From Candidatus Cloacimonadales bacterium (GTDB taxonomy: Bacteria; Cloacimonadota; Cloacimonadia; Cloacimonadales; JAFGVF01): a stretch of 64,000 bases of DNA. Under the pieces are notes generated by a model. It worked only from the letters and a program-made list of their open reading frames with translations, did no database searches and was not told the DNA's origin. The position numbers and the translations under genes are program-made. The stretch lies in the NCBI GenBank assembly GCA_963667035.1, contig OY762964.1:1824001-1888000 (forward strand), written 5' to 3'. Position 1 is the first letter of the stretch. Every line of letters begins with the position of its first letter. Below are positions 7,003 to 63,794 of this stretch, one piece after another.

Positions 7003-7121
7003 TACCTCTTACACCTAATAAAAACTTTGTTTTAATTAAGGCAAGCAAATAAAGATTCAAGTTTATGATGAGTAAAACTAAGCTTTGTAATTTCAACTTA
7101 TCCTAAAACTTACATTAAAGT

Positions 7122-8228
7122 TTAATCGTCAAAGAATGGTAAAATCATCTGATCATCCGAGTTATCATCTGTATCTAGAGTTGAAACACAGATACCTATT
7201 AGTCTTATTTTTCTTCCTGCTGGCCATGATTCTAAAAAAAGATCTCTAGCTAATCGGAATATTTGTTCTCGACCATTAGTATAGTTTTTCACTGTAGCAG
7301 ACCTATTTATAAGCGTAAAATCGTTGTATTTAACTTTTATAGTTATTGTTCTACCTTTAACATCTTTAGCTTCCATCCTATCTGCAAGTCTATGAGCCGT
7401 TTGCTCTAAAGAAAGCATGATATCAGGTAAATGAGAAATATCTTTGTTAAAAGTTCTTTCCGTACTAATAGACTTTCTAATATGCTCATTATGTACCGGT
7501 CGATTATCTATTCCTCTGACAATATTATAGTAAAAGACACCCACTTTACCGAAGTGATTAATCATCTGTTGGAGACTCAGTTTCTTTAAATCTGCACCTG
7601 TTTTAATACCTAGATAATGCATTTTTGTTTCAGTGGACTTACCAACTCCATGGAATTTACCAATCGGGAGATTCTCAATAACCTCCTCAGCCATCTCAGG
7701 AGTTATAACATATAATCCGTCAGGTTTCTTCATCTCCGAAGCAATTTTAGCTAAAAACTTATTAAATGAAACTCCTGCAGATGCAGTTACTCTAACAGTA
7801 TTTACTATATCCTTCTTTATCATTTCAGCTATCCAAGTAGCCGATGGGATATTCTTTTTATTAACTGTAACATCTAGATATGCTTCATCTATTGATACAG
7901 GCTGAACCAGATCGGTGTAATTGTTGAATATCTCCATAATCTGCTGAGAAGCTTCTCTATAAGCTTCAAATCTTCCTCTAACAAATACAGCATGGGGGCA
8001 TAGTTTAACAGCTTGAAAACTAGGCATTGCAGAATGAATTCCAAATCTTCTGGCAATATAATTGCAAGTAGATACAACCCCTCTACTATTAGGAGGTCCT
8101 CCAACAATTACGGGTTTATCTGCCAGAGATGGATTATCCCTAATCTCAATAGCTGCAAAAAACATATCCATATCGACATGAATAATCTTTCGTATCTCTT
8201 TTTGGGAAGTATCAAATTTTAAAATCAT
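7122..8228 (-). CDS. dinB: DNA polymerase IV
   Basis: IIHVDMDMFFAAIE, SIDEAYLD, NKFLAKIAS, KPDGL. Confidence 0.95.
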   Translation of the reverse strand: MILKFDTSQKEIRKIIHVDMDMFFAAIEIRDNPSLADKPVIVGGPPNSRGVVSTCNYIARRFGIHSAMPSFQAVKLCPHAVFVRGRFEAYREASQQIMEIFNNYTDLVQPVSIDEAYLDVTVNKKNIPSATWIAEMIKKDIVNTVRVTASAGVSFNKFLAKIASEMKKPDGLYVITPEMAEEVIENLPIGKFHGVGKSTETKMHYLGIKTGADLKKLSLQQMINHFGKVGVFYYNIVRGIDNRPVHNEHIRKSISTERTFNKDISHLPDIMLSLEQTAHRLADRMEAKDVKGRTITIKVKYNDFTLINRSATVKNYTNGREQIFRLARDLFLESWPAGRKIRLIGICVSTLDTDDNSDDQMILPFFDD

Positions 8229-8233
8229 AATGC

Positions 8234-8262
8234 ATTATCTGGGGCTGGAAAAGAACTGTCAA
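8234..8262 (-). promoter_or_regulatory. Sigma70-type promoter of dinB
   Basis: Minus strand TTGACA-17 nt-GATAAT, ending 5 nt before the ATG. Confidence 0.6.
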
Positions 8263-8341
8263 AAAAAACTTTACGAATAAGAATATCTAAGATATTTAGA
8301 ATATGTACAAATAGCATCCGGAATAAAGAAATAGAGAGAAT

Positions 8342-8896
8342 ATGGCAAAAACAATTAAAGTATTGAAAAAGCACGACATAACATTACATGATAATGATTT
8401 TGTTATTGTCCCGCTAGAAGCTGATAAAGTTAAGCTTGTAGTTAAGTGGATACGTAAAAGTAATTTACTAACATTCATATTTCCTGAAGACAGATTACAA
8501 AAACTGACTAAGAAAGAGAGACTCGGACATAAGCTGTTCAGAGGTTTAATCATTCAATCGATGATTATTCATTGGAGTCATAAAGGACATGTTTTTTTAG
8601 TTAAAAAAAACGATAAGTTGATAGGATTCACAGCTTCATGGTTACTTGATAAAGATAGAAATGCTTTCCGAATTCCGTTATACTTAATACCTGATGAAAG
8701 GAGAAAAGGTTACGGTTCAAAGATTCTAACAATGGTTGCCGAGTTTATCAAACTCTCTTCACCATCTTCTATTATATTGGTACCAAGTATCCCACAAACA
8801 GAAGACATAATTGTTAATTTTTATAAAAAGAACCACTTCAATATAATCGATAACTCAGAGCAAACCAATTTTACTATGTATAGGAAGAATGTTTAG
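8342..8896 (+). CDS. GNAT family N-acetyltransferase
   Basis: YLIPDERRKGYGSKIL acetyl-CoA motif A and NFYKKNHF motif B. Confidence 0.75.
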   Translation: MAKTIKVLKKHDITLHDNDFVIVPLEADKVKLVVKWIRKSNLLTFIFPEDRLQKLTKKERLGHKLFRGLIIQSMIIHWSHKGHVFLVKKNDKLIGFTASWLLDKDRNAFRIPLYLIPDERRKGYGSKILTMVAEFIKLSSPSSIILVPSIPQTEDIIVNFYKKNHFNIIDNSEQTNFTMYRKNV

Positions 8897-45904: not shown

Positions 45905-47878
45905 TTATTTAAGTAAAGTTGCTTTTTTTATAATGCATTCTTCATCGGTTAACATTCTAATAAAATAAGTACCGGAAGATTCATTTATTGCATTCCATTC
46001 ATAAGAGTGAGTTCCTTCTTTAAGATAATGGAAGTGTTTATGATGAACTCTTTTTCCCCTAATGTCGTATATATCCAAATCAACTTCTGTATCTCCTTCG
46101 AGTGAAAAGAGTAGTTCGGTCCTAGGATTAAAAGGATTAGGATAAACATTTAAAGAAGTATCGGTAACTATCTCGGGAGTGTCTTCTCCATCGATATCTA
46201 AATCGGTCTTTACATAGAAAGGACCATACATTTGGCTGAGTCCATCCAAATCAATACTCTCAAGCCAATAGAAATATACTTCTGCCATTTCAAATTCTTC
46301 GTCCACAAATACATAACTGTTACCGGTGTTACTTTGGTCGGCAAAAATAGGATTGCCATTTCTTTGTTGCTTAAAAAAACCATTTGAGAATTGATCTCTA
46401 TAAATGTTGTAATTGCTAATATTGCTTTCACTATATGTTTGCCATCTTAGCTCTATCTCATCCTGACTAATTGCATATCCATGGAAACTTCCTAGTATAA
46501 GTGGTAAAGTAAACGACTCTTCCTCTTTAATCCTAATCAAAGTTACAGTACTGAATTGTACTTTAATATTAGCAGATAAGGAGTTTAATTCTTTAAGTTC
46601 CAATGCTATCACATCAGTTGCAGAATCGATTGTGACTATTGCATTACCGTTTGCTGAACCGAAGTCACCTGAATCTTTCTTTTGTAAAGATCTTTTAATT
46701 ATGGCTTTATCAACAATTGTACCACCAATACTTACACTACAATCCACGTCTATATCAACTCCACTCTCTCCCGGATTCGGATAGGTTAGACCAATATAAT
46801 AGCATAGTAAATACTTTCCGGAACTATCGTTAATCGGGGACATCGTGTCAGTTGCAGATGAAAAACTCCAAGATGAACCGTCCCTGATGAAATCTACTTG
46901 ATTCTCCTCTTTAGTCCAAATTCCGGATATTGTGGTAACAGTAATATTGTTATCATCCATCATACTTGTATAAGGTGCTGTTGAAGTACCGTCTAGTGGT
47001 ATAAGAAGGAAATTAGAAGTATTACTGGTAAAGCTTTTATTACTTCCGTCTGCTCTAACTTTAACTGAAACTTCATCTCCTCCGTTAACTGTTATAATCC
47101 CACAAGCCAGAGAATTTCCAAAGTCAGCATTACCATCAACTTGTCTTTGAGCCATAATTGTCGGAGTAGCATCATTTATCGATATACCGGTAAAAAATTC
47201 TGCAACATTTGCTGAGGACATACTTACACTGAGTAATGCATAGTATGTTCCTGCGGCTTCAGGAGATACTGTTAAAGTGTTAGAAGCAAAACTCCATCCG
47301 TTCAATTCTCCTGATGAATAACTGTTAATATCAACCCAATTTGTACCAAGTCTGCTTTGAGTTTGTGCAGTTGTGTTATATATCTCAGCATAATAAGGTG
47401 ATAACGATTCTGTTACCTCATAGATTGCAACCTGGGCATGATAAGCTGTAAAAGAAGTGACATTATTATCACACATAACTTGTAACTTAATACTTTCTCC
47501 ATCAGAAACATTTATTAAGCTTCCACCTGATATATTGCCTACATCAGCGTTTAGTTTCATCCTTCTCTGGTTTGTTGCATAATCTGTAGAGTTTACCTGT
47601 ATTATAGTATTCCATAAGCCTTCCGACCCCTTAAAACTAATAGAATACTTAACATAATAGAGTCCTCCCCCACTTGTATTTGTCAAAGCATTGTTCGAAT
47701 AACTCCATGCAGCTGAAGTAGTACTACTACTCCAGCCGGTTACATCATAATGAGCACCTGATAAAAAAAGCGGGGATCCTGTTTGAGTTGTACCTGAGAC
47801 AATGTACATAGCAGCGTATTCAGCCCCGTAAATAAAAGCAGGCAACAGACATATCAAAAATACTAACAATTTTTTCAT
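45905..47878 (-). CDS. Secreted protein with three tandem C1q/TNF-like beta modules and a FlgD/T9SS-like C-terminal domain
   Basis: ATG at 47878 after GGAGG; signal peptide; three similar modules; LPLILGSF..LRWQT.SE domain; VYPNPFNP...SGTYF...KKATLLK. Confidence 0.75.
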   Translation of the reverse strand: MKKLLVFLICLLPAFIYGAEYAAMYIVSGTTQTGSPLFLSGAHYDVTGWSSSTTSAAWSYSNNALTNTSGGGLYYVKYSISFKGSEGLWNTIIQVNSTDYATNQRRMKLNADVGNISGGSLINVSDGESIKLQVMCDNNVTSFTAYHAQVAIYEVTESLSPYYAEIYNTTAQTQSRLGTNWVDINSYSSGELNGWSFASNTLTVSPEAAGTYYALLSVSMSSANVAEFFTGISINDATPTIMAQRQVDGNADFGNSLACGIITVNGGDEVSVKVRADGSNKSFTSNTSNFLLIPLDGTSTAPYTSMMDDNNITVTTISGIWTKEENQVDFIRDGSSWSFSSATDTMSPINDSSGKYLLCYYIGLTYPNPGESGVDIDVDCSVSIGGTIVDKAIIKRSLQKKDSGDFGSANGNAIVTIDSATDVIALELKELNSLSANIKVQFSTVTLIRIKEEESFTLPLILGSFHGYAISQDEIELRWQTYSESNISNYNIYRDQFSNGFFKQQRNGNPIFADQSNTGNSYVFVDEEFEMAEVYFYWLESIDLDGLSQMYGPFYVKTDLDIDGEDTPEIVTDTSLNVYPNPFNPRTELLFSLEGDTEVDLDIYDIRGKRVHHKHFHYLKEGTHSYEWNAINESSGTYFIRMLTDEECIIKKATLLK

Positions 47879-48012
47879 AGTACCTCCTATAATTAGTAAC
47901 CCAATACTAATATGTACCAATAAATATGCAAGCACTTTTTATTTTACTAACTAATTAGTCTCTTATTCTTATTATTAGCATAAATCATATTTCACTATTA
48001 AATTATATATAG

Positions 48013-48057: not shown

Positions 48058-49119
48058 TTAGAATACGAAGCTAACTCCTGCTGAGAATGAATTAGTGTTG
48101 GAAAGGCTATATTCTGTATTAAGCTTAAAGAAGCCACTTCTGAAAGAAGATCCAAGAACCAATCTTGTAGAATCTTCCCCTTCCATTTCGAATTTAATCT
48201 TTTCAACGTCGGTAACACCATCATCCAATTCTGTTGTAAACTCATAACTAACTTCAATATTAGAGCTATCCATCATCAAACCTGCATAAGGCGTAATGTT
48301 AAACATTTTAAGTCCAAATTGTTTTGAAGCTGTCACTCCATAAGTTGAGGCAGTCGTTGTCGCAGTATTTTCAATCTCAAGAGTCTGTGTGTAATATGCA
48401 AGAGCAATATTTATGGGTAAAGGTATCTTCATCCACATTAATGGATTGTGTTGAATTCCTACACCAAAATAAGTCATCTTGCCTAAATCCTGTACATCAT
48501 AAGGTGGTAAAGCACGTAAAGTTATCTGAGTTCCGTAAACGGTACCAAGTTTTAACTGAGGAGTCGCCATCGGGAAAACATCCCAGTCATGCATAATGGC
48601 TTTTACAGGAAGTTCTATCTCGTATTCAGCGAGATTAACTGTCTGTGTTTCACCGTTCACATTTACTTCTACAGGCTGAGCAGGAAATAGTACCTTTACT
48701 TTGTCGTCTTTTTGACCGATAATTGTAGGACCACTAATAGTCACATCAAGATCCTGATTTAAAACTGCATCTACAGCATAAGGTTTTAATGCAGGATCAA
48801 TACTGCTATTATTAACTATATCCTCTGCTTGGCTTTGAGAAAAACCAAAGTCACTATTAACTGAAAATGATTTGTCTCCTGATAAATTAGAGACAGTTGC
48901 TATAAAACCGAACTCTGCATTGATTCCAAAGATTTTAGCTTTAGGGGAATCATTAAACCAACCCGCATTTACGCTTGGTCCAAATACATTGGCTACCGGT
49001 CTGATATATTCTTTTGCAGCCCTACCTGAAAGGTTTTCTAAAGATTCTTCTAAGTCACTAGCAAAAATAGGCATAATAAGAACTAATAAAAACATAACAA
49101 TTATAGTTGTTTTTCTCAT
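48058..49119 (-). CDS. DUF6588-like outer-membrane beta-barrel protein
   Basis: Signal peptide, NAGWF, PQLKLG, GVGIQHN, terminal SAGVSFVF. Confidence 0.7.
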   Translation of the reverse strand: MRKTTIIVMFLLVLIMPIFASDLEESLENLSGRAAKEYIRPVANVFGPSVNAGWFNDSPKAKIFGINAEFGFIATVSNLSGDKSFSVNSDFGFSQSQAEDIVNNSSIDPALKPYAVDAVLNQDLDVTISGPTIIGQKDDKVKVLFPAQPVEVNVNGETQTVNLAEYEIELPVKAIMHDWDVFPMATPQLKLGTVYGTQITLRALPPYDVQDLGKMTYFGVGIQHNPLMWMKIPLPINIALAYYTQTLEIENTATTTASTYGVTASKQFGLKMFNITPYAGLMMDSSNIEVSYEFTTELDDGVTDVEKIKFEMEGEDSTRLVLGSSFRSGFFKLNTEYSLSNTNSFSAGVSFVF

Positions 49120-50775: not shown

Positions 50776-51168
50776 ATGAAAAAATCTTATTATGCTATAT
50801 TGTCTTTATTTCTAGCTTTATTTATTAATCTTTCTAGTACTGAAATTTTAATTCGTGATAGTGTAGATATTTACACAATTAAATCTATACAAATTCGATT
50901 TGATACAGATAGATTCATGCCAATCGAAAGTATTGTAATTGATGAGATAAGTAAGCCGTTTGCCTTTAGTTACGGTAGAATACAGGAAGCTATTAATTGT
51001 TATTCCTATTCAAACAAATTAATGAAGATAGTTCTTGAAGATAAAATCAATCATGAGATTACTATAACCCTTTGTAAATCAGAAAGAGATTCAACAAAAA
51101 TTAGTTACATCTATTTTTTCAATAATATGGATGAATTGATTGAGATCGATTATGAAATCAAATATTAA
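50776..51168 (+). CDS. Hypothetical exported protein
   Basis: ATG at 50776 after AGGGGA; signal peptide MKKSYYAILSLFLALFINLSS; overlaps the next gene. Confidence 0.65.
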   Translation: MKKSYYAILSLFLALFINLSSTEILIRDSVDIYTIKSIQIRFDTDRFMPIESIVIDEISKPFAFSYGRIQEAINCYSYSNKLMKIVLEDKINHEITITLCKSERDSTKISYIYFFNNMDELIEIDYEIKY

Positions 51169-54100
51169 ACACTATTTGATAATTTATCTCTTTGCTTTAG
51201 TATCGTCCCTAATCCCCTTTGAATTAGAAGCAGATGATTTCACGGTATTGTTTAACCATAATTCTATTACTGCCGGTACAAACTTCTTTGAGTTCAATCT
51301 TGGATTAAATATTAATCCAACATGTTATGCTTCACAAATAGAGATTAGTAATCCTTTTACAATATCTCAGAACAATTTTCCAATGTTTGTTTACCAGATT
51401 CTTATTGGAAGTAATTCAAAAGCAATTCTTCAGTCTGAAAATACCCCTTTAGATTCAACATATGTTACATGGTTTTACCACGAGGAGGAACAAAAGCTAA
51501 TTGTTAAGTTATTTGATAACACTTTTACAAGTTTTATATCAGTTAACTACATTCAGGATATACCTTGTTATGTATCAGAGTCTGAAGAGCTATATATAAA
51601 CATTATTGATAATGGAACTATTCTAAGACCTCAAAATTACGAAATTCCTATAGTGATATCACCATCATCATATCAAACTCTATTAATTGAGTCTTTCTAT
51701 TCAACAAATTATCGTGAAACTGAAGTGATTTATCTTACTTCAGGAGATGTAACTAATCTGTTTGCCATTAAGAGAGATGAATGGGGGAACTACATTGGGA
51801 AAAATGATAACTGTATTTGGAGTATTGAGCCACATATCGGAACTTTTATTTCATTTGAAGGAGGAGTTGAATTTGAAGGTTCATCCTTTGGATATGGGGA
51901 AATTTCCCTTGTTGACGATAATGACTTAACTCTATCTGATACCTGCCCTGTATTTATCGAAACAAACATACCATCACAACTCAATATTTTTGATTCATTT
52001 AATAACCAGATATTAGATACAACAAATCTATTATGCAGTGACTCACTTGCTGTGTATGTAGAAGTAACTGATACTTATGGTAATCAGATAACCGATGCAG
52101 ATATATCATGGAATATAGATCTAATCGGTGACTATCTCTCGTTCGAAAATGGCTATTCGAACGTATTTCATCCTGTGACAGAAACAACTTATACATTAAC
52201 AGTATCTGCCACTGCGAGCGAAACTACTATTGACAATAACCTTACAATAAGTACTTCAACAGGTATTCCTAATATACTTGCTCTTGAGAATGAAAACTTT
52301 AACTTAACCAATAATACCTATAATATTACGGTAGATGATACTTTTACTTTTGATTTTGTCATTAGAGATGACGATGGTAATCCTCATAACTATGAAGAAA
52401 TAACAGTTGAACCTCATTTCAGCTCTACAATTCCACCTATATTATCAGTAGTAGATAACACAGTTAGTTTAAGCATCGATGCAAATGCATCGGGTATAGG
52501 GACCGGTTATATCGAGATAGTAAAGACTTACCAAGGTATACAATATGAATTAAATACTCCTACAATTGTATTCGAAGAAGGTATACCTACTACGATAACA
52601 TTCTATGATACTTCAAGTAACCCAATCACAGAAGTTTCAGATTTATTGTGCAGTGACTCACTTGCTGTGTATGTAGAAGTAATTGATGCTTACGGTAATC
52701 AAATAAACAATGCAAATGTATCATGGAATATAGATTTAACCGGTGATTATCTCTCAATGGGCAATGGCTATTCGACGGTGTTCCATCCTGCGACAGAGAC
52801 AACATACACATTAACAGTATCTGCCACTGCGAGCGAAACTACTATTGATAGCACTCTTATCATTAATACAATAACCGGACTGCCAAATGCACTTGAACTC
52901 GAGAATGAAAACTTTAACTTAACCAATAATACCTATAATATTACGGTAGATGATACTTTTACTTTTGATTTTGTCATTAGAGATGACGATGGTAATCCTC
53001 ATAACTATGAAGAAATAACAGTTGAACCTCATTTCAGCTCTACAATTCCACCTATATTATCAGTAGTAGATAACACAGTTAGTTTAAGCATCGATGCAAA
53101 TGCATCGGGTATAGGGACCGGTTATATCGAGATAGTAAAGACTTACCAAGGTATACAATATGAATTAAATACTCCTACAATTGTATTCGAAGAAGGTATA
53201 CCTACTACGATAACATTCTATGATACTTCAAGTAACCCAATCACAGAAGTTTCAGATTTATTGTGCAGTGACTCACTTGCTGTGTATGTAGAAGTAATTG
53301 ATGCTTACGGTAATCAAATAAACAATGCAAATGTATCATGGAATATAGATTTAACCGGTGATTATCTCTCAATGGGCAATGGCTATTCGACGGTGTTCCA
53401 TCCTGCGACAGAGACAACATACACATTAACAGTATCTGCCACTGCGAGCGAAACTACTATTGACAATAACCTTACAATAAGTACTTCAACAGGTATTCCT
53501 AATATACTTGCTCTTGAGAATGAAAACTTTAACTTAACCAATAATACCTATAATATTACGGTAGATGATACTTTTACTTTTGATTTTGTCATTAGAGATG
53601 ACGATGGTAATCCTCATAACTATGAAGAAATAACAGTTGAACCTCATTTCAGCTCTACAATTCCACCTATATTATCAGTAGTAGATAACACAGTTAGTTT
53701 AAGCATCGATGCAAATGCATCGGGTATAGGGACCGGTTATATCGAGATAGTAAAGACTTACCAAGGTATACAATATGAATTAAATACTCCTACAATTGTA
53801 TTCGAAGAAGGTATACCTACTACGATAACATTCTATGATACTTCAAGTAACCCAATCACAGAAGTTTCAGATTTATTGTGCAGTGACTCACTTGCTGTGT
53901 ATGTAGAAGTAATTGATGCTTACGGTAATCAAATAAACAATGCAAATGTATCATGGAATATAGATTTAACCGGTGACTATCTCTCTATGGGTAATGGCTA
54001 TTCGAACGTATTTCATCCTGTGACAGAAACAACTTATACATTAACAGTATCTGCCACTGCGAGCGAAACTACTATTGATAGCACTCTTATCATTAATACA

Positions 54101-57100
54101 ATAACCGGACTGCCAAATGCACTTGAACTCGAGAATGAAAACTTTAACTTAACCAATAATACCTATAATATTACGGTAGATGATACTTTTACTTTTGATT
54201 TTGTCATTAGAGATGACGATGGTAATCCTCATAACTATGAAGAAATAACAGTTGAACCTCATTTCAGCTCTACAATTCCACCTATATTATCAGTAGTAGA
54301 TAACACAGTTAGTTTAAGCATCGATGCAAATGCATCGGGTATAGGGACCGGTTATATCGAGATAGTAAAGACTTACCAAGGTATACAATATGAATTAAAT
54401 ACTCCTACAATTGTATTCGAAGAAGGTATACCTACTACGATAACATTCTATGATACTTCAAGTAACCCAATCACAGAAGTTTCAGATTTATTGTGCAGTG
54501 ACTCACTTGCTGTGTATGTAGAAGTAATTGATGCTTACGGTAATCAAATAAACAATGCAAATGTATCATGGAATATAGATTTAACCGGTGATTATCTCTC
54601 AATGGGCAATGGCTATTCGACGGTGTTCCATCCTGCGACAGAGACAACATACACATTAACAGTATCTGCCACTGCGAGCGAAACTACTATTGACAATAAC
54701 CTTACAATAAGTACTTCAACAGGTATTCCTAATATACTTGCTCTTGAGAATGAAAACTTTAACTTAACCAATAATACCTATAATATTACGGTAGATGATA
54801 CTTTTACTTTTGATTTTGTCATTAGAGATGACGATGGTAATCCTCATAACTATGAAGAAATAACAGTTGAACCTCATTTCAGCTCTACAATTCCACCTAT
54901 ATTATCAGTAGTAGATAACACAGTTAGTTTAAGCATCGATGCAAATGCATCGGGTATAGGGACCGGTTATATCGAGATAGTAAAGACTTACCAAGGTATA
55001 CAATATGAATTAAATACTCCTACAATTGTATTCGAAGAAGGTATACCTACTACGATAACATTCTATGATACTTCAAGTAACCCAATCACAGAAGTTTCAG
55101 ATTTATTGTGCAGTGACTCACTTGCTGTGTATGTAGAAGTAATTGATGCTTACGGTAATCAAATAAACAATGCAAATGTATCATGGAATATAGATTTAAC
55201 CGGTGATTATCTCTCAATGGGCAATGGCTATTCGACGGTGCTCCATCCTGCGACAGAGACAACATACACATTAACAGTATCTGCCACTGCAAGCGAAACT
55301 ACTATTGATAGCACTCTTATCATTAATACAATAACCGGACTGCCAAATGCACTTGAACTCGAGAATGAAAACTTTAACTTAACCAATAATACCTATAATA
55401 TTACGGTAGATGATACTTTTACTTTTGATTTTGTCATTAGAGATGACGATGGTAATCCGCATAATTATGAAGAAATAACAGTTGAACCTCATTTCAGCTC
55501 TACAATTCCACCTATATTATCAGTAGTAGATAACACAGTTAGTTTAAGCATCGATGCAAATGCATCGGGTATAGGGACCGGTTATATCGAGATAGTAAAG
55601 ACTTACCAAGGTATACAATATGAATTAAATACTCCTACAATTGTGTTAGATGTTGGAACTCCAAGATTCCTATATATCAAGGATGCTCCTTTTCCAATAG
55701 AAGGTAATGATATTAGCTTGTCAGATGTAACTGTTGGCTCATCAGTAGATATGTATGCAATATGTGAAGACCAGCACTACAATAATATTGAGCTAGAACC
55801 TAATGCTTTAAACTGGATTATCTCCCCATTAGAACTAGAAAATAGTATAGAAGTTAATGGTATTTTCGCTACATTTCGTCCAACAACAGCTAGTTCAGAA
55901 GTTACAATAACCGTGAGTTATGTAGATTTTGAAATAAAACATTCAATAGGTCCTTTTAGTATATTTGATAGACCTAACCTTTCATACGTCGATTCAACTT
56001 TGACTCCATTAATTATTAGTCCCGGGGAGGAGATTTGCTTTTCTTTAAACATACGGAATCAAAATCGAGCATGTACAAGTATAGAGTTAAGTACTCAATC
56101 ATACCTTAGTCTTTTTGATTCTCAAACTGGTTCGGAATGCATAAGTCATCTTGAGCAAGAAGTTTCTATAAATGATTCTTCAATTAGTTTGTTAGAGTTT
56201 GAAAAATTAGAAATACCGAATGATTTTACTGCTGAGACATATCCAATCGAGTTACATCTGGATGGCACCTTTTCATGTTTAAATAGTGATGAATTAGGTG
56301 AATACTCTGAAACAATTATTATTGAAAATAATCAAGTCTGCATTTCTAATGTAGTTATAGAAACTGTATCTTCAGTAAATAGTGTTGTCTACCCTGGTGA
56401 TAAAGATACTGTTTTTGTCCAGTTTTCAAACTTTGGTACTCTTGATGTTTCAGTAACAGAGGTTCAGTTAACTTTTAATGGAACAGCAAATAATGATCAT
56501 AATTATGATACAGTTATTGAAAGTTTTTCTCTACCACCAAACTCGTCTAGAACAGAGGAATTCGAAGTTACAGTTAACAACAATGCATCGTTAGGTAATG
56601 TTGTATTGGATGCAAACTTTACAGCTATAAATCAGATTGGAAACCCATATCATGTATCCGATGCTCTATCTACAGATTCATGGGATATAGTAACACCACC
56701 TAATATAGAATATTGTCAATCATCATTGCATGTTAATGGTACTTCATTTGATGGAGAACTACATGTTACTCAAGGACAGAATACAGAATTTTCGTTTAAT
56801 CTACAGAACACTGGAAGTGTTGGAGTGAAACTAATTAGAGACTCAACATATATTGAATATATACATATTGATGGTACAGTTGTAAAAAGTTTAATGACTC
56901 AAGATAGCCTTTTAGTAAATCCTAATGACTCAAGTGCTATTGAATTTTGCTCTATAGAATCTTACTTTCCAAATTTAGGATTAGACACTTTACACTTTAC
57001 TTGTATGGGCATTGATAATAATGCATACAAGTATTCGACAAGTTTTTACATACCGGATCTTTTAACAGTAGTTGATTCATTTTCTCCAATAGTTGAGCAG

Positions 57101-59131
57101 AATAATATCGAGATTGTAAAAACATATCCTGTTAATCCCGAAATCCAATTGTCAAATATTGGAGGAGTTTTAGGAATTTTGTCTGAATCAAATACAAGTT
57201 TAACAATATCTGCTGTAAACTATGAAGAGGAATTAGGTAAACCAATATCAATAGGTATAGATAGTGAAGTAATGCTTATATTTGAGGAGTTTACATTTCC
57301 TGCTGATACTTCACCTCAGGTTGATTTTGTCCTTAATATTGAGGGTGTAGATTCTAACAATGCTTCATTTGCTCATCAGCTCCCAGGAACTTGTAATTTA
57401 AAAAATCCGGTTAGCTTTCAACTACTTTCCTACTCTCCTCATCAAGCAGTTTTAAATGATCAAGCAAGTTTTTCTGTTACAGTTAAAAACAATGGGGGTG
57501 TTTATTTTGACCCAACCGGACAAACCAAAATAAGTTTTATTAAAGATTCAATTAATTTGTTTACTTCTCTGGCTGAAATCGAGACAAGAGTATTATCAGG
57601 AGAAACATCTGAAATAACATTTTTCTCGGAAGAGATTGTTGCTGATATTGATCCAGGAATGGGAGTTTTTGAAGTAGAAATTATAGGCGTAGATTCACAC
57701 AATAATCCAGTTTATGAAACGGTTTCTTTACAAGTTGATATAGAGAATCGAGGATACCCACAAATTGAGTCTGTGTGGTTTATTGATGGAGGTCTAAATG
57801 AAACACCTAATGGTATTGTAGATTCTACTGATGCTTTAAAAGTTTGTTTTGATGATAAGCCGATAATTTCGAATGGCATTAGAGAAAGCTATTCGTTCTT
57901 CCAATTGATTGGTAGAAATGACAGTTTCGGAGAAATCAACACCTCTAAAATTGTAACTAGTGAGGAAATGTATTATACAGGTATAGATAAAGATAGTACT
58001 TTATTTGTACAACTTGCTCAAGATTGCAAGATTAGTCTTCCATATCAAGATAACCATTTTGATGCAGAGATAACACCTTCTTACTTAATCATCAAACCTG
58101 ATATTGAAAGAGATTTATTATGTGATGTAAACAAAGGGGATGCAGGTTTTGAATGTAATAGAACATTACTATCAGACCAACTTAATGAGATTTCTCAACA
58201 CATACCTGGTATTAACATCTGCTCCCATGAAGTAAGAATTCAAGATAATATACCACCATTGTTGTTAAATCCCTATCCAATCGGCAATGCTATGAATGAT
58301 AATTATTACTCTAAATACAGTGATGTATCTATCATGGCATCCGGAAGAAACTATGTTGATTCAAATGTTTTAAGACAAGAACTTATTCAATATTTTACGG
58401 ATTTAGAAGTTGATTCTATGATAAGCAATTATGATACTCTGTATGTAAAACTACAAAGTCTGACAGATGATGATATCAACTTTATTGCGAATAAATTCAA
58501 AAATCACATACCTTCATCAATTGACTTGAATCTTGATAATCTAATTGTGAATCCTTTTGCTCAAATGTATTCTGGATTAAAAGAAGAGTTTATCTCAGTA
58601 GAGTTAACTAACGAGTTTTCAAATTACAATAACTTGACAACAAACTATAATGAAATTGAAGATAAAATATATAATAATTTAACAGTAAAGAGTCAAAATA
58701 CCTTTGATGGCGAGATAACAGCAAAGCTGCAAGTATCAGATCACTATAATCAAACCTATAGTGATACAACCTTCCAATTCATTGTTAGTAAACCAGGAAG
58801 AGATTATATCACTTATGGAAATCAAGAGTATCTTCTTAGGACTGCTCCAAACCCTATTAATTTAAATAGGGATAAAGAGATTTATTTAGAATATATACTA
58901 CCAAACATAGCAGATCACATTGCAATTATAATAGTAGATTCAGGTGGTAACATCGTAAAAAAAATATCTTACACTAATGCGATGGACACAAATACAGGTA
59001 AACATCTTAAGCAAAATTTCTGGAATCTACGTAATGGTAGAGGTGATAGAATATCCAAGGGAATTTACTTAATCTTACTAGAAGTAGATGGTGATGTTAA
59101 AGCCGGATGGCATATTGTCGGAGATAAATAA
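51152..59131 (+). CDS. Giant secreted Ig-repeat surface protein (~2,660 aa) with FlgD/T9SS-like C-terminal domain
   Basis: Signal peptide; many DxxGN Ig-like modules; several F-x-x-x-x-x-N-x-G CARDB-like modules; C-terminal APNP..IVDSGGNIVKK..WNLRN.RG...SKGIYL. Confidence 0.88.
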   Translation: MKSNIKHYLIIYLFALVSSLIPFELEADDFTVLFNHNSITAGTNFFEFNLGLNINPTCYASQIEISNPFTISQNNFPMFVYQILIGSNSKAILQSENTPLDSTYVTWFYHEEEQKLIVKLFDNTFTSFISVNYIQDIPCYVSESEELYINIIDNGTILRPQNYEIPIVISPSSYQTLLIESFYSTNYRETEVIYLTSGDVTNLFAIKRDEWGNYIGKNDNCIWSIEPHIGTFISFEGGVEFEGSSFGYGEISLVDDNDLTLSDTCPVFIETNIPSQLNIFDSFNNQILDTTNLLCSDSLAVYVEVTDTYGNQITDADISWNIDLIGDYLSFENGYSNVFHPVTETTYTLTVSATASETTIDNNLTISTSTGIPNILALENENFNLTNNTYNITVDDTFTFDFVIRDDDGNPHNYEEITVEPHFSSTIPPILSVVDNTVSLSIDANASGIGTGYIEIVKTYQGIQYELNTPTIVFEEGIPTTITFYDTSSNPITEVSDLLCSDSLAVYVEVIDAYGNQINNANVSWNIDLTGDYLSMGNGYSTVFHPATETTYTLTVSATASETTIDSTLIINTITGLPNALELENENFNLTNNTYNITVDDTFTFDFVIRDDDGNPHNYEEITVEPHFSSTIPPILSVVDNTVSLSIDANASGIGTGYIEIVKTYQGIQYELNTPTIVFEEGIPTTITFYDTSSNPITEVSDLLCSDSLAVYVEVIDAYGNQINNANVSWNIDLTGDYLSMGNGYSTVFHPATETTYTLTVSATASETTIDNNLTISTSTGIPNILALENENFNLTNNTYNITVDDTFTFDFVIRDDDGNPHNYEEITVEPHFSSTIPPILSVVDNTVSLSIDANASGIGTGYIEIVKTYQGIQYELNTPTIVFEEGIPTTITFYDTSSNPITEVSDLLCSDSLAVYVEVIDAYGNQINNANVSWNIDLTGDYLSMGNGYSNVFHPVTETTYTLTVSATASETTIDSTLIINTITGLPNALELENENFNLTNNTYNITVDDTFTFDFVIRDDDGNPHNYEEITVEPHFSSTIPPILSVVDNTVSLSIDANASGIGTGYIEIVKTYQGIQYELNTPTIVFEEGIPTTITFYDTSSNPITEVSDLLCSDSLAVYVEVIDAYGNQINNANVSWNIDLTGDYLSMGNGYSTVFHPATETTYTLTVSATASETTIDNNLTISTSTGIPNILALENENFNLTNNTYNITVDDTFTFDFVIRDDDGNPHNYEEITVEPHFSSTIPPILSVVDNTVSLSIDANASGIGTGYIEIVKTYQGIQYELNTPTIVFEEGIPTTITFYDTSSNPITEVSDLLCSDSLAVYVEVIDAYGNQINNANVSWNIDLTGDYLSMGNGYSTVLHPATETTYTLTVSATASETTIDSTLIINTITGLPNALELENENFNLTNNTYNITVDDTFTFDFVIRDDDGNPHNYEEITVEPHFSSTIPPILSVVDNTVSLSIDANASGIGTGYIEIVKTYQGIQYELNTPTIVLDVGTPRFLYIKDAPFPIEGNDISLSDVTVGSSVDMYAICEDQHYNNIELEPNALNWIISPLELENSIEVNGIFATFRPTTASSEVTITVSYVDFEIKHSIGPFSIFDRPNLSYVDSTLTPLIISPGEEICFSLNIRNQNRACTSIELSTQSYLSLFDSQTGSECISHLEQEVSINDSSISLLEFEKLEIPNDFTAETYPIELHLDGTFSCLNSDELGEYSETIIIENNQVCISNVVIETVSSVNSVVYPGDKDTVFVQFSNFGTLDVSVTEVQLTFNGTANNDHNYDTVIESFSLPPNSSRTEEFEVTVNNNASLGNVVLDANFTAINQIGNPYHVSDALSTDSWDIVTPPNIEYCQSSLHVNGTSFDGELHVTQGQNTEFSFNLQNTGSVGVKLIRDSTYIEYIHIDGTVVKSLMTQDSLLVNPNDSSAIEFCSIESYFPNLGLDTLHFTCMGIDNNAYKYSTSFYIPDLLTVVDSFSPIVEQNNIEIVKTYPVNPEIQLSNIGGVLGILSESNTSLTISAVNYEEELGKPISIGIDSEVMLIFEEFTFPADTSPQVDFVLNIEGVDSNNASFAHQLPGTCNLKNPVSFQLLSYSPHQAVLNDQASFSVTVKNNGGVYFDPTGQTKISFIKDSINLFTSLAEIETRVLSGETSEITFFSEEIVADIDPGMGVFEVEIIGVDSHNNPVYETVSLQVDIENRGYPQIESVWFIDGGLNETPNGIVDSTDALKVCFDDKPIISNGIRESYSFFQLIGRNDSFGEINTSKIVTSEEMYYTGIDKDSTLFVQLAQDCKISLPYQDNHFDAEITPSYLIIKPDIERDLLCDVNKGDAGFECNRTLLSDQLNEISQHIPGINICSHEVRIQDNIPPLLLNPYPIGNAMNDNYYSKYSDVSIMASGRNYVDSNVLRQELIQYFTDLEVDSMISNYDTLYVKLQSLTDDDINFIANKFKNHIPSSIDLNLDNLIVNPFAQMYSGLKEEFISVELTNEFSNYNNLTTNYNEIEDKIYNNLTVKSQNTFDGEITAKLQVSDHYNQTYSDTTFQFIVSKPGRDYITYGNQEYLLRTAPNPINLNRDKEIYLEYILPNIADHIAIIIVDSGGNIVKKISYTNAMDTNTGKHLKQNFWNLRNGRGDRISKGIYLILLEVDGDVKAGWHIVGDK
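52028..55644 (+). repeat. Intragenic tandem array of about six 615-bp (205-aa) near-identical units
   Basis: LLCSDSLAVYVEV begins at 52028, 52643, 53258, 53873, 54488 and 55103; identity ends after ELNTPTIV near 55644. Confidence 0.96.
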
Positions 59132-60114
59132 TGAAGAAATATATCTTAATTGCTACTAACTTACTGCTTGCAGTATTCATATACTGTGGTTCATATTATG
59201 GTGGAGGAGTTAATGCTTGGTTTTCTAATCCAGGAACTGCTAGAGAAATTGGTATGGGAATGACTGGAGTGTCTAATGCTAAAGGAGCTTCTTCTTTTCT
59301 ATGGAATCCTGCGAGATTAGATTCTCTAGATTTGGCAATAACGATAAGCGATTTCGCGAATTCGGAAGACTTATTCTGGTCACAACAGAAGAGTAATGAG
59401 ACTTATTCAGGGCATTTATCTACAGTATATAGAGATTGGGGATTTAATCTTAGATATAAGCAAATCAATCATATCGGATATACCAATTATGATCCATTAA
59501 CAAGTACTATTATTGTTGATAGATGGGAAAATAGTTATGATTGGTCAGCTAATATAAACTACTCTCACAGTTTCAATAGTTCGATAGCTGTAGGTTGCAA
59601 TTTAAGATCATCGTATAATGAAATTTTTGAGAGTAGCTATACCATTGGAAGTGATGTTGGCGGATTAGTACGTTTCCCATATTCCTTTTCAGCTAAAGAT
59701 ATTTATAGATTCCAATACGGAATTGTTCTATCATTAGACTCCGAAATAGGTAACGAAAATCCTGTGTATCAATACAGTCTTGCAAGCGGATTATCTTATA
59801 TAATAAGTGATAATTGGAGCGTTTCAACTGACTTTAAAACAGGTAATTACCAATCGAACTCTATAAGTCTTGGAAGTGAGTATTCTTTGTGGGATCAATT
59901 ATATCTTAGGATAGGTTTAAGTAATTATTTTAGTAGTAAATTTCCGAATGAAGTTCTAAGAACTCCAACAAAACCTTTTGAAGGTTCCACTTATGGAATT
60001 GGTTTCAAAATAAAGAAATTTATGCTTGATGTTTCTCATGTAGTACAAAGCTCAAATTATTATTATTATTATACACAATCAACGACATTTTTATCATTTA
60101 GTTATAGTCGTTAA
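59131..60114 (+). CDS. PorV/FadL-like outer-membrane beta-barrel
   Basis: Signal peptide; PGTAREIGMGMTGVS..GASSFLWNPARL hatch motif; LGSEY, LYLRIG, YGIGF; terminal LSFSY. Confidence 0.82.
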   Translation: MKKYILIATNLLLAVFIYCGSYYGGGVNAWFSNPGTAREIGMGMTGVSNAKGASSFLWNPARLDSLDLAITISDFANSEDLFWSQQKSNETYSGHLSTVYRDWGFNLRYKQINHIGYTNYDPLTSTIIVDRWENSYDWSANINYSHSFNSSIAVGCNLRSSYNEIFESSYTIGSDVGGLVRFPYSFSAKDIYRFQYGIVLSLDSEIGNENPVYQYSLASGLSYIISDNWSVSTDFKTGNYQSNSISLGSEYSLWDQLYLRIGLSNYFSSKFPNEVLRTPTKPFEGSTYGIGFKIKKFMLDVSHVVQSSNYYYYYTQSTTFLSFSYSR

Positions 60115-62268
60115 ATGGAGGGAAAATATATAATGGTTACATTAGCAACTAATTCCAAACATTCTTTTTGGATAAAAATCAGGATTATCTTTGCTTTCTT
60201 TATTTCACTTGGTGCTATTATGGTTGCCTTGTGTTTCACCATAAATGGTCTAAAAAAGCATCAAGAGAATATAACAACTATAATGATGAGTTCAGATTAT
60301 CTCTCTGCTGCAGTCGATTATTTGCAGAAAACATCTGAGTATTATAATGGTGAAACTAATGAAGAATTTTTGAGCAAAATTGATAAAGAACTTATTAACT
60401 CTAACCAGAACACACGAAGTTTTTTTAGAGCTTTGATCGAAAGAGATTCAACTATCGTAAGTTCATTAGTAGATAAATTTGAGTTAAACTCAAAGATTTA
60501 TCATATAGATGAGCAGTTTTATCAATTTTTTGATCATATTATGTACTTGGTTTATAATGAAGATCCATTAATTTATGAACTTAAATTTCATAGGTTACAT
60601 AAAGAATTGATAATAGTTGCAGAAGATAAGACATCGTTGGAAGTAGAGAAAGATAATAAGAACTACCATTCTATAATTAAAATGCTAAATAGAAGAAGAA
60701 AACGTTTGTTTCTAAACATACTATTGGAGATTTATCATTACTCTTCAATAGATATCGACAGCATAATTCTAGATGAAATCTCGAATATGAATGACGTCAA
60801 AGAAGATATACCATTATATTCTATTTACAGCGGACTTATACGACACGACAAGAACAAGAACAATGAATTCACGCAGATGTTGTTTGAATCCACAAGAAAA
60901 GACCCGACATTAACTAATCAATTAGTCAATTTAAATCTTAGGATTTATAATCGAATAGATAGTTTAACAACAAAGTTTAAAATTGATGAGAGTGAGGATG
61001 AGTATTATAAAAAATATATCGATAGTGCTAGAGATTATTTATATTACTTAGGAATTACATATAATGATCGTATCGCAAATATTGATGAAACAATTTGCAA
61101 TGTTCAGTGTAGGAATTCCTATCAGTATAAGCTAACTGATTGGCTAACATTTTCAATATATATTACTATGGGGATAGTTATTTGTATCTTTTGTATACTT
61201 TCATTAAGATATCATAAGCAGTATAACTTAGATGATGAGTTAACGAAAACAATTTGTACTGATAACCAAGAGTTAAGCGAATTAATGCTGAGTAAATTAG
61301 ATCCTCTGAGTTTATCCAAAAAAAATAATGGGATTAAAATGTATTTACTAAATGTGTTAAAACTTAAAAATGATAACATATACATTCCGAAAGTGCTACA
61401 TGAAGAATATTTAAATGAGTATTATCTGCAAGAAGAGTATGAGAAAGAGAAAATTAGAAATACTTTTGTGTGGCTTATTAGATTGGGTATTATTGGTACA
61501 CTTTTAGGTATATACTTGGCATTTAGTGAAATGCAAAATGGAATGTCTGCAGAAACTGAAGGTGTACATTTTCTTGATACTTTAGTGAAAGCTGTTGGAG
61601 GAAATGCTGTAGCTGTTATTACTAGTTTAGTAGCTCATTTCGTTACATTTTTTTTTGAAGCATCAGTTTGCTTTAAACTGTTTGAATTATCTTCAACAGC
61701 TATGATTAGAGAAATTTACAAACAGTTAATGGATAAAAGTACATTAGAAGATCCATTTAGTGATGCGAGAGAAGATCTCAATAGAATTGTTATAGAATTT
61801 AAATTTTGGTTTGAGATGATTAAGAAATCGAAACTTGAAGAAAAGATTGTTGAGACGACAAATACAATAACAATCTGCAATAATTGTCTAAAATTATTTT
61901 ATTCTAAACTTAGAATAACGATTGAAGAGTCTGATTATATGCACTATTATATAAATAGCCTGATTCAAGTATTAGAAAGTGTTCGAAATGATTTAAGAAA
62001 CATTGATATGATAAGCATTAGCGAAATTTTGGATACATCACTAGAACTAAATGATGCTTTTGAATCAGAACTATTTCTTGTAGAAACTATCAAAGAGAGT
62101 AAAAATATAATCATAGACTCCATTTCATCACTTAGTAAATTTAATCAAACATTGAAAGATTTTGACAGTTCACAAATTGATAAGATTAGTTTGGTCATGA
62201 CTGACATTAGTAAAGCTATCATCAATTTGAAAATTTCGCTTGGAGTAAAAAATGATAACAAAGATTAA
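60115..62268 (+). CDS. Large MotA/TolQ/ExbB-like membrane protein with inserted soluble domain and long C-terminal tail
   Basis: Four hydrophobic segments; the last two read LIRLGIIGTLLGIYLAF and GGNAVAVITSLVAHF, matching the MotA/TolQ/ExbB channel hairpin. Confidence 0.7.
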   Translation: MEGKYIMVTLATNSKHSFWIKIRIIFAFFISLGAIMVALCFTINGLKKHQENITTIMMSSDYLSAAVDYLQKTSEYYNGETNEEFLSKIDKELINSNQNTRSFFRALIERDSTIVSSLVDKFELNSKIYHIDEQFYQFFDHIMYLVYNEDPLIYELKFHRLHKELIIVAEDKTSLEVEKDNKNYHSIIKMLNRRRKRLFLNILLEIYHYSSIDIDSIILDEISNMNDVKEDIPLYSIYSGLIRHDKNKNNEFTQMLFESTRKDPTLTNQLVNLNLRIYNRIDSLTTKFKIDESEDEYYKKYIDSARDYLYYLGITYNDRIANIDETICNVQCRNSYQYKLTDWLTFSIYITMGIVICIFCILSLRYHKQYNLDDELTKTICTDNQELSELMLSKLDPLSLSKKNNGIKMYLLNVLKLKNDNIYIPKVLHEEYLNEYYLQEEYEKEKIRNTFVWLIRLGIIGTLLGIYLAFSEMQNGMSAETEGVHFLDTLVKAVGGNAVAVITSLVAHFVTFFFEASVCFKLFELSSTAMIREIYKQLMDKSTLEDPFSDAREDLNRIVIEFKFWFEMIKKSKLEEKIVETTNTITICNNCLKLFYSKLRITIEESDYMHYYINSLIQVLESVRNDLRNIDMISISEILDTSLELNDAFESELFLVETIKESKNIIIDSISSLSKFNQTLKDFDSSQIDKISLVMTDISKAIINLKISLGVKNDNKD

Positions 62269-62860
62269 AGTCAGTAAATATTGGGAAAGTATACTATTAA
62301 TCTCTTTAGATACATTTATGTTACTAGCTGTTATGGGTATTACATTGGGCGTAATATTTATTGTGATGAACTCAGAAATACCAAATAAAAAGCCTGATTA
62401 TGCTACTGACTGGGGTAAAATGGCAGAAGAAAGCATTGATGAAATAAGAACAATGAGTTATCTGAAGAATTTGGTGACTAAAGAAGAAATTCCAGGGGAA
62501 GAGAGACTGATTATCAAATATCATAAACTAAATAGCTTATTCAGCTCAAATACTTATGATAGTTTATGGGGAAAGTATTTTCCGCAAAACATTTACGAAA
62601 CAAAAATAGAGTGCTTTGTTGATAATAAAAAAAAATATGACAAAAAATATGGCTCGGGTATCCGAAAGGTCAGTATAAAAGTAGACTTTAAAACGAATAA
62701 TTATGATCAAGAAGTATGCACTATGATTGAGTACAATGGCTATGAAGAAAATAGTGTCTACAAACTGATCCCAGATGCAAATGATGTTTACATATATACT
62801 GGAAATCGCATAAAGAATAATATGCTTGAACTGCTATCTGAACTAAATAATGCAAAATAG
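62252..62860 (+). CDS. Single-pass membrane protein, possibly MotB/ExbD-like
   Basis: One N-terminal TM containing Asp20 (ILLISLDTFMLLAVMGITLGVIFIV); overlaps the MotA/ExbB-like gene. Confidence 0.55.
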   Translation: MITKIKVSKYWESILLISLDTFMLLAVMGITLGVIFIVMNSEIPNKKPDYATDWGKMAEESIDEIRTMSYLKNLVTKEEIPGEERLIIKYHKLNSLFSSNTYDSLWGKYFPQNIYETKIECFVDNKKKYDKKYGSGIRKVSIKVDFKTNNYDQEVCTMIEYNGYEENSVYKLIPDANDVYIYTGNRIKNNMLELLSELNNAK

Positions 62861-63794
62861 TAAGTCACATATGTTACTTCAAAATCGTTTTTTTTTAGTA
62901 TTAATGCTAATAGTTGTCTTTGTGCATTCTTATTCTCTTGAAATTCGAGAGGATAATGATATGATAAAATATACTTTTGTATATAAAGTTGATGTAAAGT
63001 TTAATGAGTTTAACCAAAAGTTGGAAAAACCTCTACCCTCAAGATCACAAGATAATATAACGCTTGATGTTTTTATCCGAATCAATATCGTTGAGCTTAG
63101 GGGGAACTCTTTTGCTGAAACAAGCCAAATAGATTCGGTAACGTTAAAAGAACTATGTAAAGAAATGTTTATAACATTTAGTAAGGGGAATTCTAAAGGT
63201 TTACATACTCGAATGGAGATAGGTAAAGGTTCTGACAATAAGCAAGTAGGAACTTGGCTTCTGAATAATGATGTAATAAAAGCAAAATTACTGAAAGATC
63301 TCCTCAAGATTTTTTCTCTTCAGAATGACAGTTTATATACAAAACTGTATTCTTTTGATAAACCAAGGATAATAGAAAATAAAAACGAACAAAGCTTTTT
63401 AATCAATAAACCCCCAGAAATCAAAATACACTCTTCAGTCAATACAATAAGTGAACTGCACGAAATAGAATTAGATACTTTTATCTTCCAGAAGAGTACT
63501 ATTGATAAAAATGTTCCGATAGACATAGGTACATGCTACTCTTTCCACAAATCAGATACTATTAAAAATGAAGCTATAGCATTGAAAGATACCGTGAATT
63601 ATGATGCTATAGTGTTTGATGCTAAACCAGACTCGTTATCAAAACTTATATTTTTAAAAAGGAGCAAGGTTAAAGAGTTGCTAAAGGGCTATGTAGGTAA
63701 AAAAGATAGGAAAGTAGAAAAGGAAAATAGAAAGCATGCTATTATTTTATCAATTATCTCAGCTGTTGCTGTAATCCTGTCAGCAATTCGATAG
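62850..63794 (+). CDS. Hypothetical protein with N-terminal signal/TM and C-terminal TM
   Basis: FFLVLMLIVVFVHSYS at the N-terminus and AIILSIISAVAVILSAIR at the C-terminus; overlaps the previous gene. Confidence 0.7.
   Translation: MQNSKSHMLLQNRFFLVLMLIVVFVHSYSLEIREDNDMIKYTFVYKVDVKFNEFNQKLEKPLPSRSQDNITLDVFIRINIVELRGNSFAETSQIDSVTLKELCKEMFITFSKGNSKGLHTRMEIGKGSDNKQVGTWLLNNDVIKAKLLKDLLKIFSLQNDSLYTKLYSFDKPRIIENKNEQSFLINKPPEIKIHSSVNTISELHEIELDTFIFQKSTIDKNVPIDIGTCYSFHKSDTIKNEAIALKDTVNYDAIVFDAKPDSLSKLIFLKRSKVKELLKGYVGKKDRKVEKENRKHAIILSIISAVAVILSAIR

Follow-up and report, generated by a model that had tools for sequence, protein, structure and literature searches.

Known 5:2 ion motors drive flagella, the Ton and Tol systems, gliding, type IX secretion and Zorya defence. 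The flagellar members MotAB and PomAB are defined by a B subunit with a plug and an OmpA-type domain, and non-flagellar motors of unknown function whose periplasmic domains are large have also been noted, with no mention of the gene context reported here in the accessible portion of that source (PMC12505986). In Zorya types I and II, the motor is a ZorA5B2 complex in which T147 and S184 of ZorA are filter residues and the ZorA tail relays signals (PMC11946911), and a peptidoglycan-binding domain is required on the B subunit (PMC11890865). In the T9SS (type IX secretion system) of Bacteroidota, carrier-cargo pairs are ejected from SprA by the energy of a motor chain (PMC12635249), with cargos of type B remaining on dedicated carriers (PMC12635249; PMC9143113). 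Here we describe a locus of Candidatus Cloacimonadales bacterium (assembly GCA_963667035.1) that combines elements of these systems. It lies in a window of 64,000 nucleotides (nt), the whole stretch of DNA that was analyzed (contig OY762964.1, positions 1,824,001 to 1,888,000), and encodes, in this order, a giant cargo with a C-terminal sorting domain (CTD), a PorV-family outer-membrane barrel, the A and B subunits of a motor-like pair and an exported protein designated protein C (genes 2 to 6; Table 1). These genes form a real, conserved and rare five-gene system, for which we infer a function below; its parts come from known superfamilies, and the system matches no known one. Full-text literature searches, with most subscription papers outside their coverage, listed neither this arrangement, in line with a preliminary description of the window that had found it unfamiliar, nor any paper on a combination of Zorya and T9SS.

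Conservation of gene order supports a single system. Relatives of the A subunit numbered only the protein itself when a word index was queried with gene 4, three when it was queried with alignment A6 and 33 in a full HMMER scan, and the 33 share one motif set. The 23 loci (17 clusters at 90% core identity) include 16 from metagenomes, four from genomes labelled Melioribacteraceae, Neomarinimicrobiota, uncultured bacterium and euryarchaeote, and a further genome, G244 (G labels denote genomes, G000 being the one that holds the window, and L labels loci). Co-occurrence of barrel, cargo and motor genes, named beforehand as a test of the preliminary description, was found: B follows A wherever downstream sequence exists (20 of 20 loci), and wherever upstream sequence exists (16 of 16 loci) a CTD motif is found 1.2-1.5 kb upstream of A. 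A barrel motif stands between the two in 13 of these 16, the remaining three barrels having been aligned or placed in a tree, and B is followed by a signal-peptide protein with a terminal hydrophobic helix in 15 of 15 loci with a complete gene. These pattern scans depend on conserved motifs, so divergent members may escape them, and many of the loci are kin from marine samples. Within the home phylum, G101 carries cargo, barrel, A, B and C in identical order.

The cargo and motor genes also select the same genomes. Among 232 genomes of the home phylum, the motor search found only G000 and G101, and a cargo profile built from these two alone gave full-length matches in the same two; three of its five matches in the phylum cover the CTD only (E about 1e-13) and were left out. 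In two further samples of 301 genomes each, the cargo profile selected G233, G234 and G244 in one, two of them through the CTD part only but beside a motor gene, and G232 in the other, at a threshold of 1e-16 chosen after the CTD-only matches in the home phylum had been seen. Cargo and motor profiles thereby pick identical genomes, 6 of 834; the motor profile A6 contained the G232 and G234 proteins, so that those two motor matches are not independent, whereas the cargo matches are. In the class sample of G232, eight of nine motor-profile matches cover the coiled-coil tail only (E about 1e-9) and were left out uninspected. That cargo-barrel and motor-protein C are two independent units which merely travel together is very improbable and largely refuted: contact between the halves is hypothetical, and cargo-barrel pairs occur alone in G000, but the same order and overlapping genes persist at 17-27% A identity in hosts from at least three lineages, and neither half was found without the other among the 834 genomes. 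The module was not seen in the three same-genus genomes listed (72-99% complete), and this absence, the rarity of the module and its low GC content together suggest lateral spread.

In the window, the preliminary description had reported a block of six co-oriented genes that overlap or abut, more AT-rich than the core genes. All six open reading frames (ORFs) are real and lie on the + strand at the positions given, with junction overlaps, from gene 1 to gene 6, of 17, 1 (TAATG), 0, 17 and 11 nt; the next gene is convergent, at 63879. Five of the six are conserved, whereas gene 1, on the tests made, falls outside the module: it has no meaningful family match in Pfam, NCBIfam and PADLOC-type library scans, no counterpart of it was detected elsewhere, and it shows no similarity to a 161-amino-acid (aa) gene at the equivalent position of L026 (109 of 200 shuffles score equally high). 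The GC profile agrees with an AT-rich block (0.318, against 0.356 across the 3.10-Mb single-contig genome G000). GC as low as this occurs in 0.36% of 3090 13-kb windows of G000, and gene 4 (0.282) falls in the lowest 0.1% of its ORFs of at least 250 aa. Scans for promoters and terminators gave results at chance level (75 vs 82.7 and 5 vs 4.1).

Table 1. Coordinates of the locus and its features (positions in the window; aa, amino acids; Ig, immunoglobulin)
Feature	Position	Strand	Description
Gene 1	50776-51168	+	130 aa, small exported protein
Gene 2, giant cargo	51152-59131	+	2659 aa; signal peptide, with Ig repeats, a C-terminal region specific to the family and a CTD of FlgD/T9SS type
Six tandem 615-bp (205-aa) Ig-pair repeats in gene 2	52025-55714	+	Big_1, Glyco_hydro2_C5 Ig folds
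Cargo-family region of gene 2, ~350 aa, with DGG/PDG, GRN and NPxxxM motifs	57740-58777	+	Just before CTD
C-terminal sorting domain of gene 2, FlgD-like	58778-59131	+	FlgD_ig E 0.02, aligned CTD family
Gene 3, PorV-family outer-membrane barrel	59131-60114	+	327 aa; module-specific branch
Gene 4, motor A subunit	60115-62268	+	717 aa; MotA/ExbB/ZorA core
Gene 5, motor B subunit	62252-62860	+	202 aa; Asp20 before single membrane helix
Gene 6, protein C	62850-63794	+	314 aa; likely cleaved signal peptide, C-terminal hydrophobic helix

The A subunit has four hydropathy helices (24-42, 344-362, 451-469 and 494-512), laid out as an N-terminal helix, a predicted periplasmic domain of ~300 aa, a three-helix core and a helical tail of 202 aa. 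In complete members the part N-terminal to the core measures 71-348 aa; the tail after the last helix measures 113-348 aa in all 33 aligned members and scores against chemoreceptor and other coiled coils. Judged from sequence and predicted fold, A is a member of the MotA/ExbB superfamily, as the preliminary description held. Gene 4 itself scores 21.7-23.3 bits against MotA_ExbB, straddling the cut-off of 22.9, and PF01618 matches 12 of 14 A cores (best E 5e-10). A predicted structure, with a mean predicted local distance difference test score of 57.7 (core 68-84, helical tail about 50-66), retrieved TolQ (Z 10.9, root-mean-square deviation 4.6 over 208 residues), ExbB (Z 10.3, 4.3 over 208 residues) and type II ZorA (Z 10.0, 2.5 over 99 residues). 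These and ZorA are tied at the top of the fold search at Z 10-11, values which, being below 13, lie within the range that helical bundles reach by chance, and the periplasmic domain is barely covered.

By sequence, however, the motor lies nearer ZorA than MotA or ExbB. Among PDB sequences, the A core profile best matches Escherichia coli ZorA (E 1e-7, spanning all three helices), with TolQ at E 0.33 and MotA at E 0.49; its matches to the beta-2 adrenergic receptor (E 0.002 and above) were taken as chance helix matches. The PADLOC ZorA models match the A family weakly (best E 3e-4, in few of 14 members) and the full-length A protein of the window not at all. Gld families gave no match to genes 4-6 in Pfam and NCBIfam, nor to the A core in the PDB sequence search, and the ESM Atlas yielded nothing usable for gene 4. 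A predicted complex of three A cores and a single B scored 0.06 against a mark of 0.32, which is evidence neither way.

Residues of the core point to ion conduction of a distinct type. All 33 A proteins share R456, G458, G461, T462, G465 and A507, and conservation among the 33 is also high at T/S503 (33), G496 (32), E515 (32), S504 (30), H508 (29) and N497 (28). In the core alignment T462 pairs with ZorA T147 and N497 with ZorA S184. A reading of T462/T503/S504 as the threonine triad of PomA was dropped, the register of the ZorA alignment giving T462/G496/N497; the register relative to PomA was set by motif spacing (PMC10374538) and the ZorA alignment rather than by direct alignment. Because the PomA-type triad is missing, these residues make H+ more likely than Na+ as the coupling ion. 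From helix position, R456, T503, S504, H508 and E515 may form a second polar layer nearer the cytoplasm.

The B subunit, proposed from the window as an Asp-containing single-pass partner, has that organization: a Ser-Leu-Asp20 motif stands directly before its sole membrane helix and is invariant in all position-defined B genes. Its 55 relatives are 87-202 aa long (search range 74-354; five truncated-looking B matches were left out of the B profile, and alignment A12 left out 7 of the 55). Sequence searches of 16 B proteins found no OmpA domain at E<=1 in any, by means of a library that detects OmpA in neighboring genes, nor an ExbD domain in any, and B has no PDB sequence match. The periplasmic part is small and highly variable (window against family, E 0.26). 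Protein C comprises an exported domain of ~270 aa with no meaningful Pfam or PDB match (12 members), and the ESM Atlas yielded nothing usable for a homologue. Its similarity is significant in 7 of 11 copies tested, the others being those of the window (E 0.18), G101, L026 and L044, such that orthology of the window protein rests on position and layout rather than on significant sequence similarity. In 11 of 11 copies the C-terminus is a hydrophobic helix of 15-19 residues that is preceded by Lys/Arg and followed by no more than one basic residue, an unusual anchor. Across the family the N-termini look by eye like cleavable signal peptides; protein C is thus likely singly anchored, and the double anchoring first attributed to gene 6 is probably wrong.

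With ZorA5B2 of Zorya (types I and II; PMC11946911, PMC11890865) the module shares the three-helix core with its GxxGT motif, the equivalence of T462 and ZorA T147, an Asp in the B helix, a long cytoplasmic helical A tail and adjacent A and B genes. It differs in that B lacks an OmpA-like wall-binding domain, that there is no ZorC/D/E-type effector and the genes flanking A-B encode envelope proteins in all loci read, that A carries an extra N-terminal helix, a periplasmic domain and the invariant Arg456, that Asn replaces Ser at the ZorA S184 position, and that the pair is always joined to a T9SS-type cargo and barrel. A PADLOC scan confined to the five window proteins was blank, weak ZorA similarity aside, and so showed none of the Zorya effectors (ZorC/D/E, F/G). 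Identification of the module as Zorya was rejected, since no peptidoglycan-binding domain is detected in B by sequence and no effector gene follows at the loci read.

A Zorya-like sensor is a broader possibility. The giant protein would act as antenna or bait, and contact, pulling, or attack by a phage or predator would be relayed via barrel and protein C to B, opening the motor, with the output being either signaling by the A tail to a cytoplasmic partner whose gene lies elsewhere or the flux of ions as such. Conflict systems typically show a patchy distribution, low GC and exposed parts that change quickly, and we counted these traits in favor of such a sensor, as we did the sequence proximity to E. 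coli ZorA, the weak PADLOC matches, the presence of type II ZorA among the tied folds and the tails of all 33 A proteins with their coiled-coil scores. However, no effector, regulator or cytoplasmic output gene is conserved beside any locus read, the wall-binding domain that Zorya requires is missing from B, flanking genes read by eye as housekeeping or envelope genes, and the tail matches are those of a generic coiled coil. On balance this reading, the main rival to the one preferred below, appears rather unlikely.

Comparison with the other 5:2 motors gives a similarly mixed picture. Like ExbB-ExbD-TonB and TolQ-TolR-TolA, the module has an A core of matching fold (Z about 10-11), a B subunit with a short, unanchored periplasmic domain and a third, membrane-tethered periplasmic protein adjoining the pair. 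Unlike them, it has no detected ExbD/TolR or TonB/TolA domain, its third protein is tethered C-terminally, its A subunit is long-tailed and its outer-membrane partner is neither a TonB-dependent receptor nor TolB-Pal. With MotAB and PomAB (PMC10374538, PMC12505986) it shares a GxxGTxxG glycine zipper, the B Asp and four hydrophobic A helices; it differs in the missing OmpA domain of B, the weak sequence match (E 0.49), the lack of flagellar context and the replacement of the PomA T158/T185/T186 triad by T462/G496/N497. In the family scans, genes 4-6 show no homology to GldL or GldM. Identification of the module as a Ton, Tol, Mot or GldLM system or as a PorP/SprF pair was rejected, a defining test having failed for each.

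Gene 3, described at the outset as a PorV-like barrel, is a PorV homologue from a separate branch as far as sequence comparison goes. It scores 62.7 bits against PorV_fam (NF033709), short of the cut-off of 90; the top PDB match of the barrel family profile is PorV (6h3i_F, E 3e-7), and PorP/SprF gave no match to gene 3 in Pfam and NCBIfam. In a tree with long branches and a midpoint root, 13 module barrels fall on one side of a branch with 96/96 support and 11 others, ten G000 paralogues and one from G244, on the other side, hence the barrel appears module-specific. G000 holds 11 PorV-family loci, and a cargo-barrel pair by itself is ordinary in this genome. The barrel profile also matches the FadL-family channels CymD, TbuX and TodX weakly (E 0.002-0.03), which, with the tie of TolQ and ExbB with ZorA in the fold search, would fit Ton-like uptake, in which a substrate caught by the giant protein would be imported through the FadL-like barrel, the motor opening its hatch by way of protein C as a reversed TonB. 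We consider uptake improbable, given that the barrel lies closer to PorV and stands behind a CTD in every case, that TonB and ExbD domains are missing and that genes for transport, binding or catabolism are not conserved in the vicinity.

The cargo was likewise described correctly as an Ig-repeat protein of ~2,660 aa with a FlgD/T9SS-like CTD. It begins with a hydrophobic stretch of signal-peptide type, and its tandem repeats (Big_1 E 6e-11) are 84-100% identical at the DNA level, with copies 3 and 5 identical; their period exceeds the limit of Tandem Repeats Finder, so this program does not report them. Additional Ig-like sequence is present (CARDB E 2e-4). The cargo-family region matches no known family, and its DGG/PDG motif is found in 9 of 11 aligned cargos (L013 ends before the motif and L010 lacks the region) and also in L044. 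The FlgD_ig match of the last 117 aa is weak, whereas the L010 homologue, the CTD of which is 38% identical to that of the window cargo, exceeds the FlgD_ig cut-off; Por_Secre_tail gave no match to the cargo in Pfam and NCBIfam. The window cargo is 25% identical to that of G101 over 891 aa (E 1e-51) and 30% identical to those of L026 and L015 over ~500 aa, and cargo lengths range from 941 aa (L010) through 2004 aa (L026) to more than 2670 aa (L015, L016). The L010 cargo (5840-8665) carries Big_9/cadherin-like domains and no family-specific region, and retains a module-type CTD, so the passenger appears swappable. The 866-aa cargo of G101 has no evident signal peptide and may be truncated; it abuts a divergent gene that we take to resemble a membrane pyrophosphatase.

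In the T9SS inventory that the preliminary description had called for, sprA is above the cut-off in G000 and in four of five other module genomes (G101, G232, G233 and G234), and not over it in G235. GldM was found in 0 of 1 and GldL in 0 of 5 genomes, in a search in which the positive control was also silent and GldK and GldN were not included. The module was proposed to be self-contained; it does join CTD cargo, own barrel and MotA/ExbB-type pair but, having no translocon, is not self-sufficient. The 3.1-Mb genome G000 also contains 20 peptidase C25 matches and five other PF01618 genes, so the module is an add-on rather than the cell's only energizer. One of these gene sets (G000:C1:243422-252952) combines a receptor-like gene, ExbB, two ExbD-like genes, a TonB-like gene, a CTD protein of 1018 aa and PorV in a single stretch, and constitutes a second motor gene set beside a CTD-PorV pair (ExbB and PorV by profile, the rest by eye). 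Two others with PF01618 matches are a cluster with TPR proteins (G000:C1:328935-339041), which by eye we presume to be AglRQS/GltG-like, and a gene pair (2799986-2801372), presumably MotA/MotB-like. Upstream of the module in the window are, on the - strand, a type A CTD protein of 676 aa, the N-terminus of which weakly matches PorU (45905-47935), and the DUF6588 gene that precedes it (48058-49119). The start of sprA is found about 2.7 kb beyond the module, on its downstream side, in G234 (L010 12800-20753, contig 75); in G233 sprA lies on another contig.

Type B T9SS systems (SprB-SprF, PG1035-PorP-PorE and GldLM/GldKN; PMC9143113, PMC12635249) resemble the module in placing a large CTD protein beside its own barrel, in the SprA of the host, in the implication of a membrane motor and in the PorE-like WD40/OmpA genes that follow some module loci. 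They differ in that the module barrel is of the PorV rather than the PorP/SprF family and lacks a twin-cysteine tail, its CTD is FlgD/type A-like, its motor belongs to the MotA/ExbB superfamily and is encoded in the same putative operon, and ring and track genes are missing. A giant repeat adhesin, a dedicated barrel and a motor nonetheless make up the parts list of gliding (PMC12635249), and minimal surface motility, with the motor carrying the adhesin along the cell in the manner of SprB on SprF, has to be weighed. WD40 and OmpA-domain genes, which could be wall anchors, follow several loci, but no GldKN-like track gene was found in any locus read, the twin-cysteine tail is absent, the WD40/OmpA genes are missing at the window, G101, L010, L026, L027 and L044, and one cargo is just 941 aa; motility is accordingly quite improbable. 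Where present, a WD40 propeller gene directly follows the module and is itself followed by an OmpA-domain gene (L012 2721-4949, L015 13335-19228, L018 10496-15216, L024 3369-5545, L023 2637-4684 and L025 8088-9670); an M23 peptidase accompanies the OmpA-domain gene in L012, L018 and L024, with PD40 too in L018. Pfam confirmed WD40 and OmpA in four loci and WD40 in L023, and the rest were assigned by eye.

In G101 (L003 1-10962, L004 2673-17729), the module stands between near-identical sets of genes, through either tandem duplication or an assembly effect. The L029 contig is labelled Euryarchaeota archaeon UBA136, yet carries a barrel and CTD cargo, and the genome has no sprA match; it is likely a mis-binned bacterial contig. 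In G244, a gene that looks by eye like a transposase (L044 5703-7004) lies 0.4 kb beyond protein C.

The reading that we prefer, which is tentative and falls somewhat short of probable, is a private ion-driven energizer acting on its own secreted adhesin. Its basis is the fixed gene order, the module-specific barrel and cargo families, the motor-type residues and the sprA of the host. A mechanical energizer is favored because every one of the five products is an envelope protein, the set reaching from the inner membrane to the surface, because no conserved cytoplasmic output gene was seen at the loci read and because carrier-cargo ejection in Bacteroidota offers a precedent. By analogy with T9SS biology, the cargo would cross the outer membrane via SprA and dock on its own carrier barrel, which likely holds the giant surface protein by its CTD. 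In the inner membrane, a predicted A5B2 motor, an A pentamer surrounding two B helices with cations passing B Asp20 and A Thr462/Asn497, would pull on this barrel. B would be the shaft, as it has no cell-wall anchor, and the braced part would be, as in GldLM and ExbBD, the A ring together with its periplasmic domain and its helical tail in the cytoplasm. In the least supported step, the B periplasmic domain would work via protein C on the barrel. This chain may serve to release the barrel-cargo pair from the translocon, or to put tension on the displayed adhesin and retract it.

Several observations weigh against this energizer. Among solved proteins, the A core comes closest in sequence to ZorA, a sensor, and the A tail is ZorA-like. 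Conservation is very poor in the periplasmic domain of B and in protein C; the contact surfaces of TonB and ExbD are, by contrast, conserved. The module is rare (about 6 of 834 genomes), and G000 has at least five other pairs of CTD-protein and PorV-family neighbors without motor genes, which implies that most cargos need no private motor. An SprF-like twin-cysteine tail was not seen (0-1 Cys in the last 25 residues of 13 of 13 barrels), and force transfer across the peptidoglycan lacks an explanation.

Whatever the precise output, we lean, by a narrow measure of confidence, towards the module representing an undescribed class of 5:2 rotary motor, related to Zorya, released from the cell wall and connected across the whole envelope to a T9SS-displayed giant protein of its own. 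It would be a trans-envelope mechanical device, a winch or a touch sensor, in bacteria of the Fibrobacteres-Chlorobi-Bacteroidetes (FCB) group in which GldLM was not detected, and might connect the Zorya, Ton/Tol and type IX lineages. The invariant intramembrane Arg and the filter Asn would mark a distinct variant of ion coupling, and a ZorA-like tailed motor outside a recognizable defence operon bears on the origins of Zorya motors. For FCB bacteria of this kind, the locus provides a compact, clonable case of how SprA-type secretion may be energized, or surface proteins moved or read.

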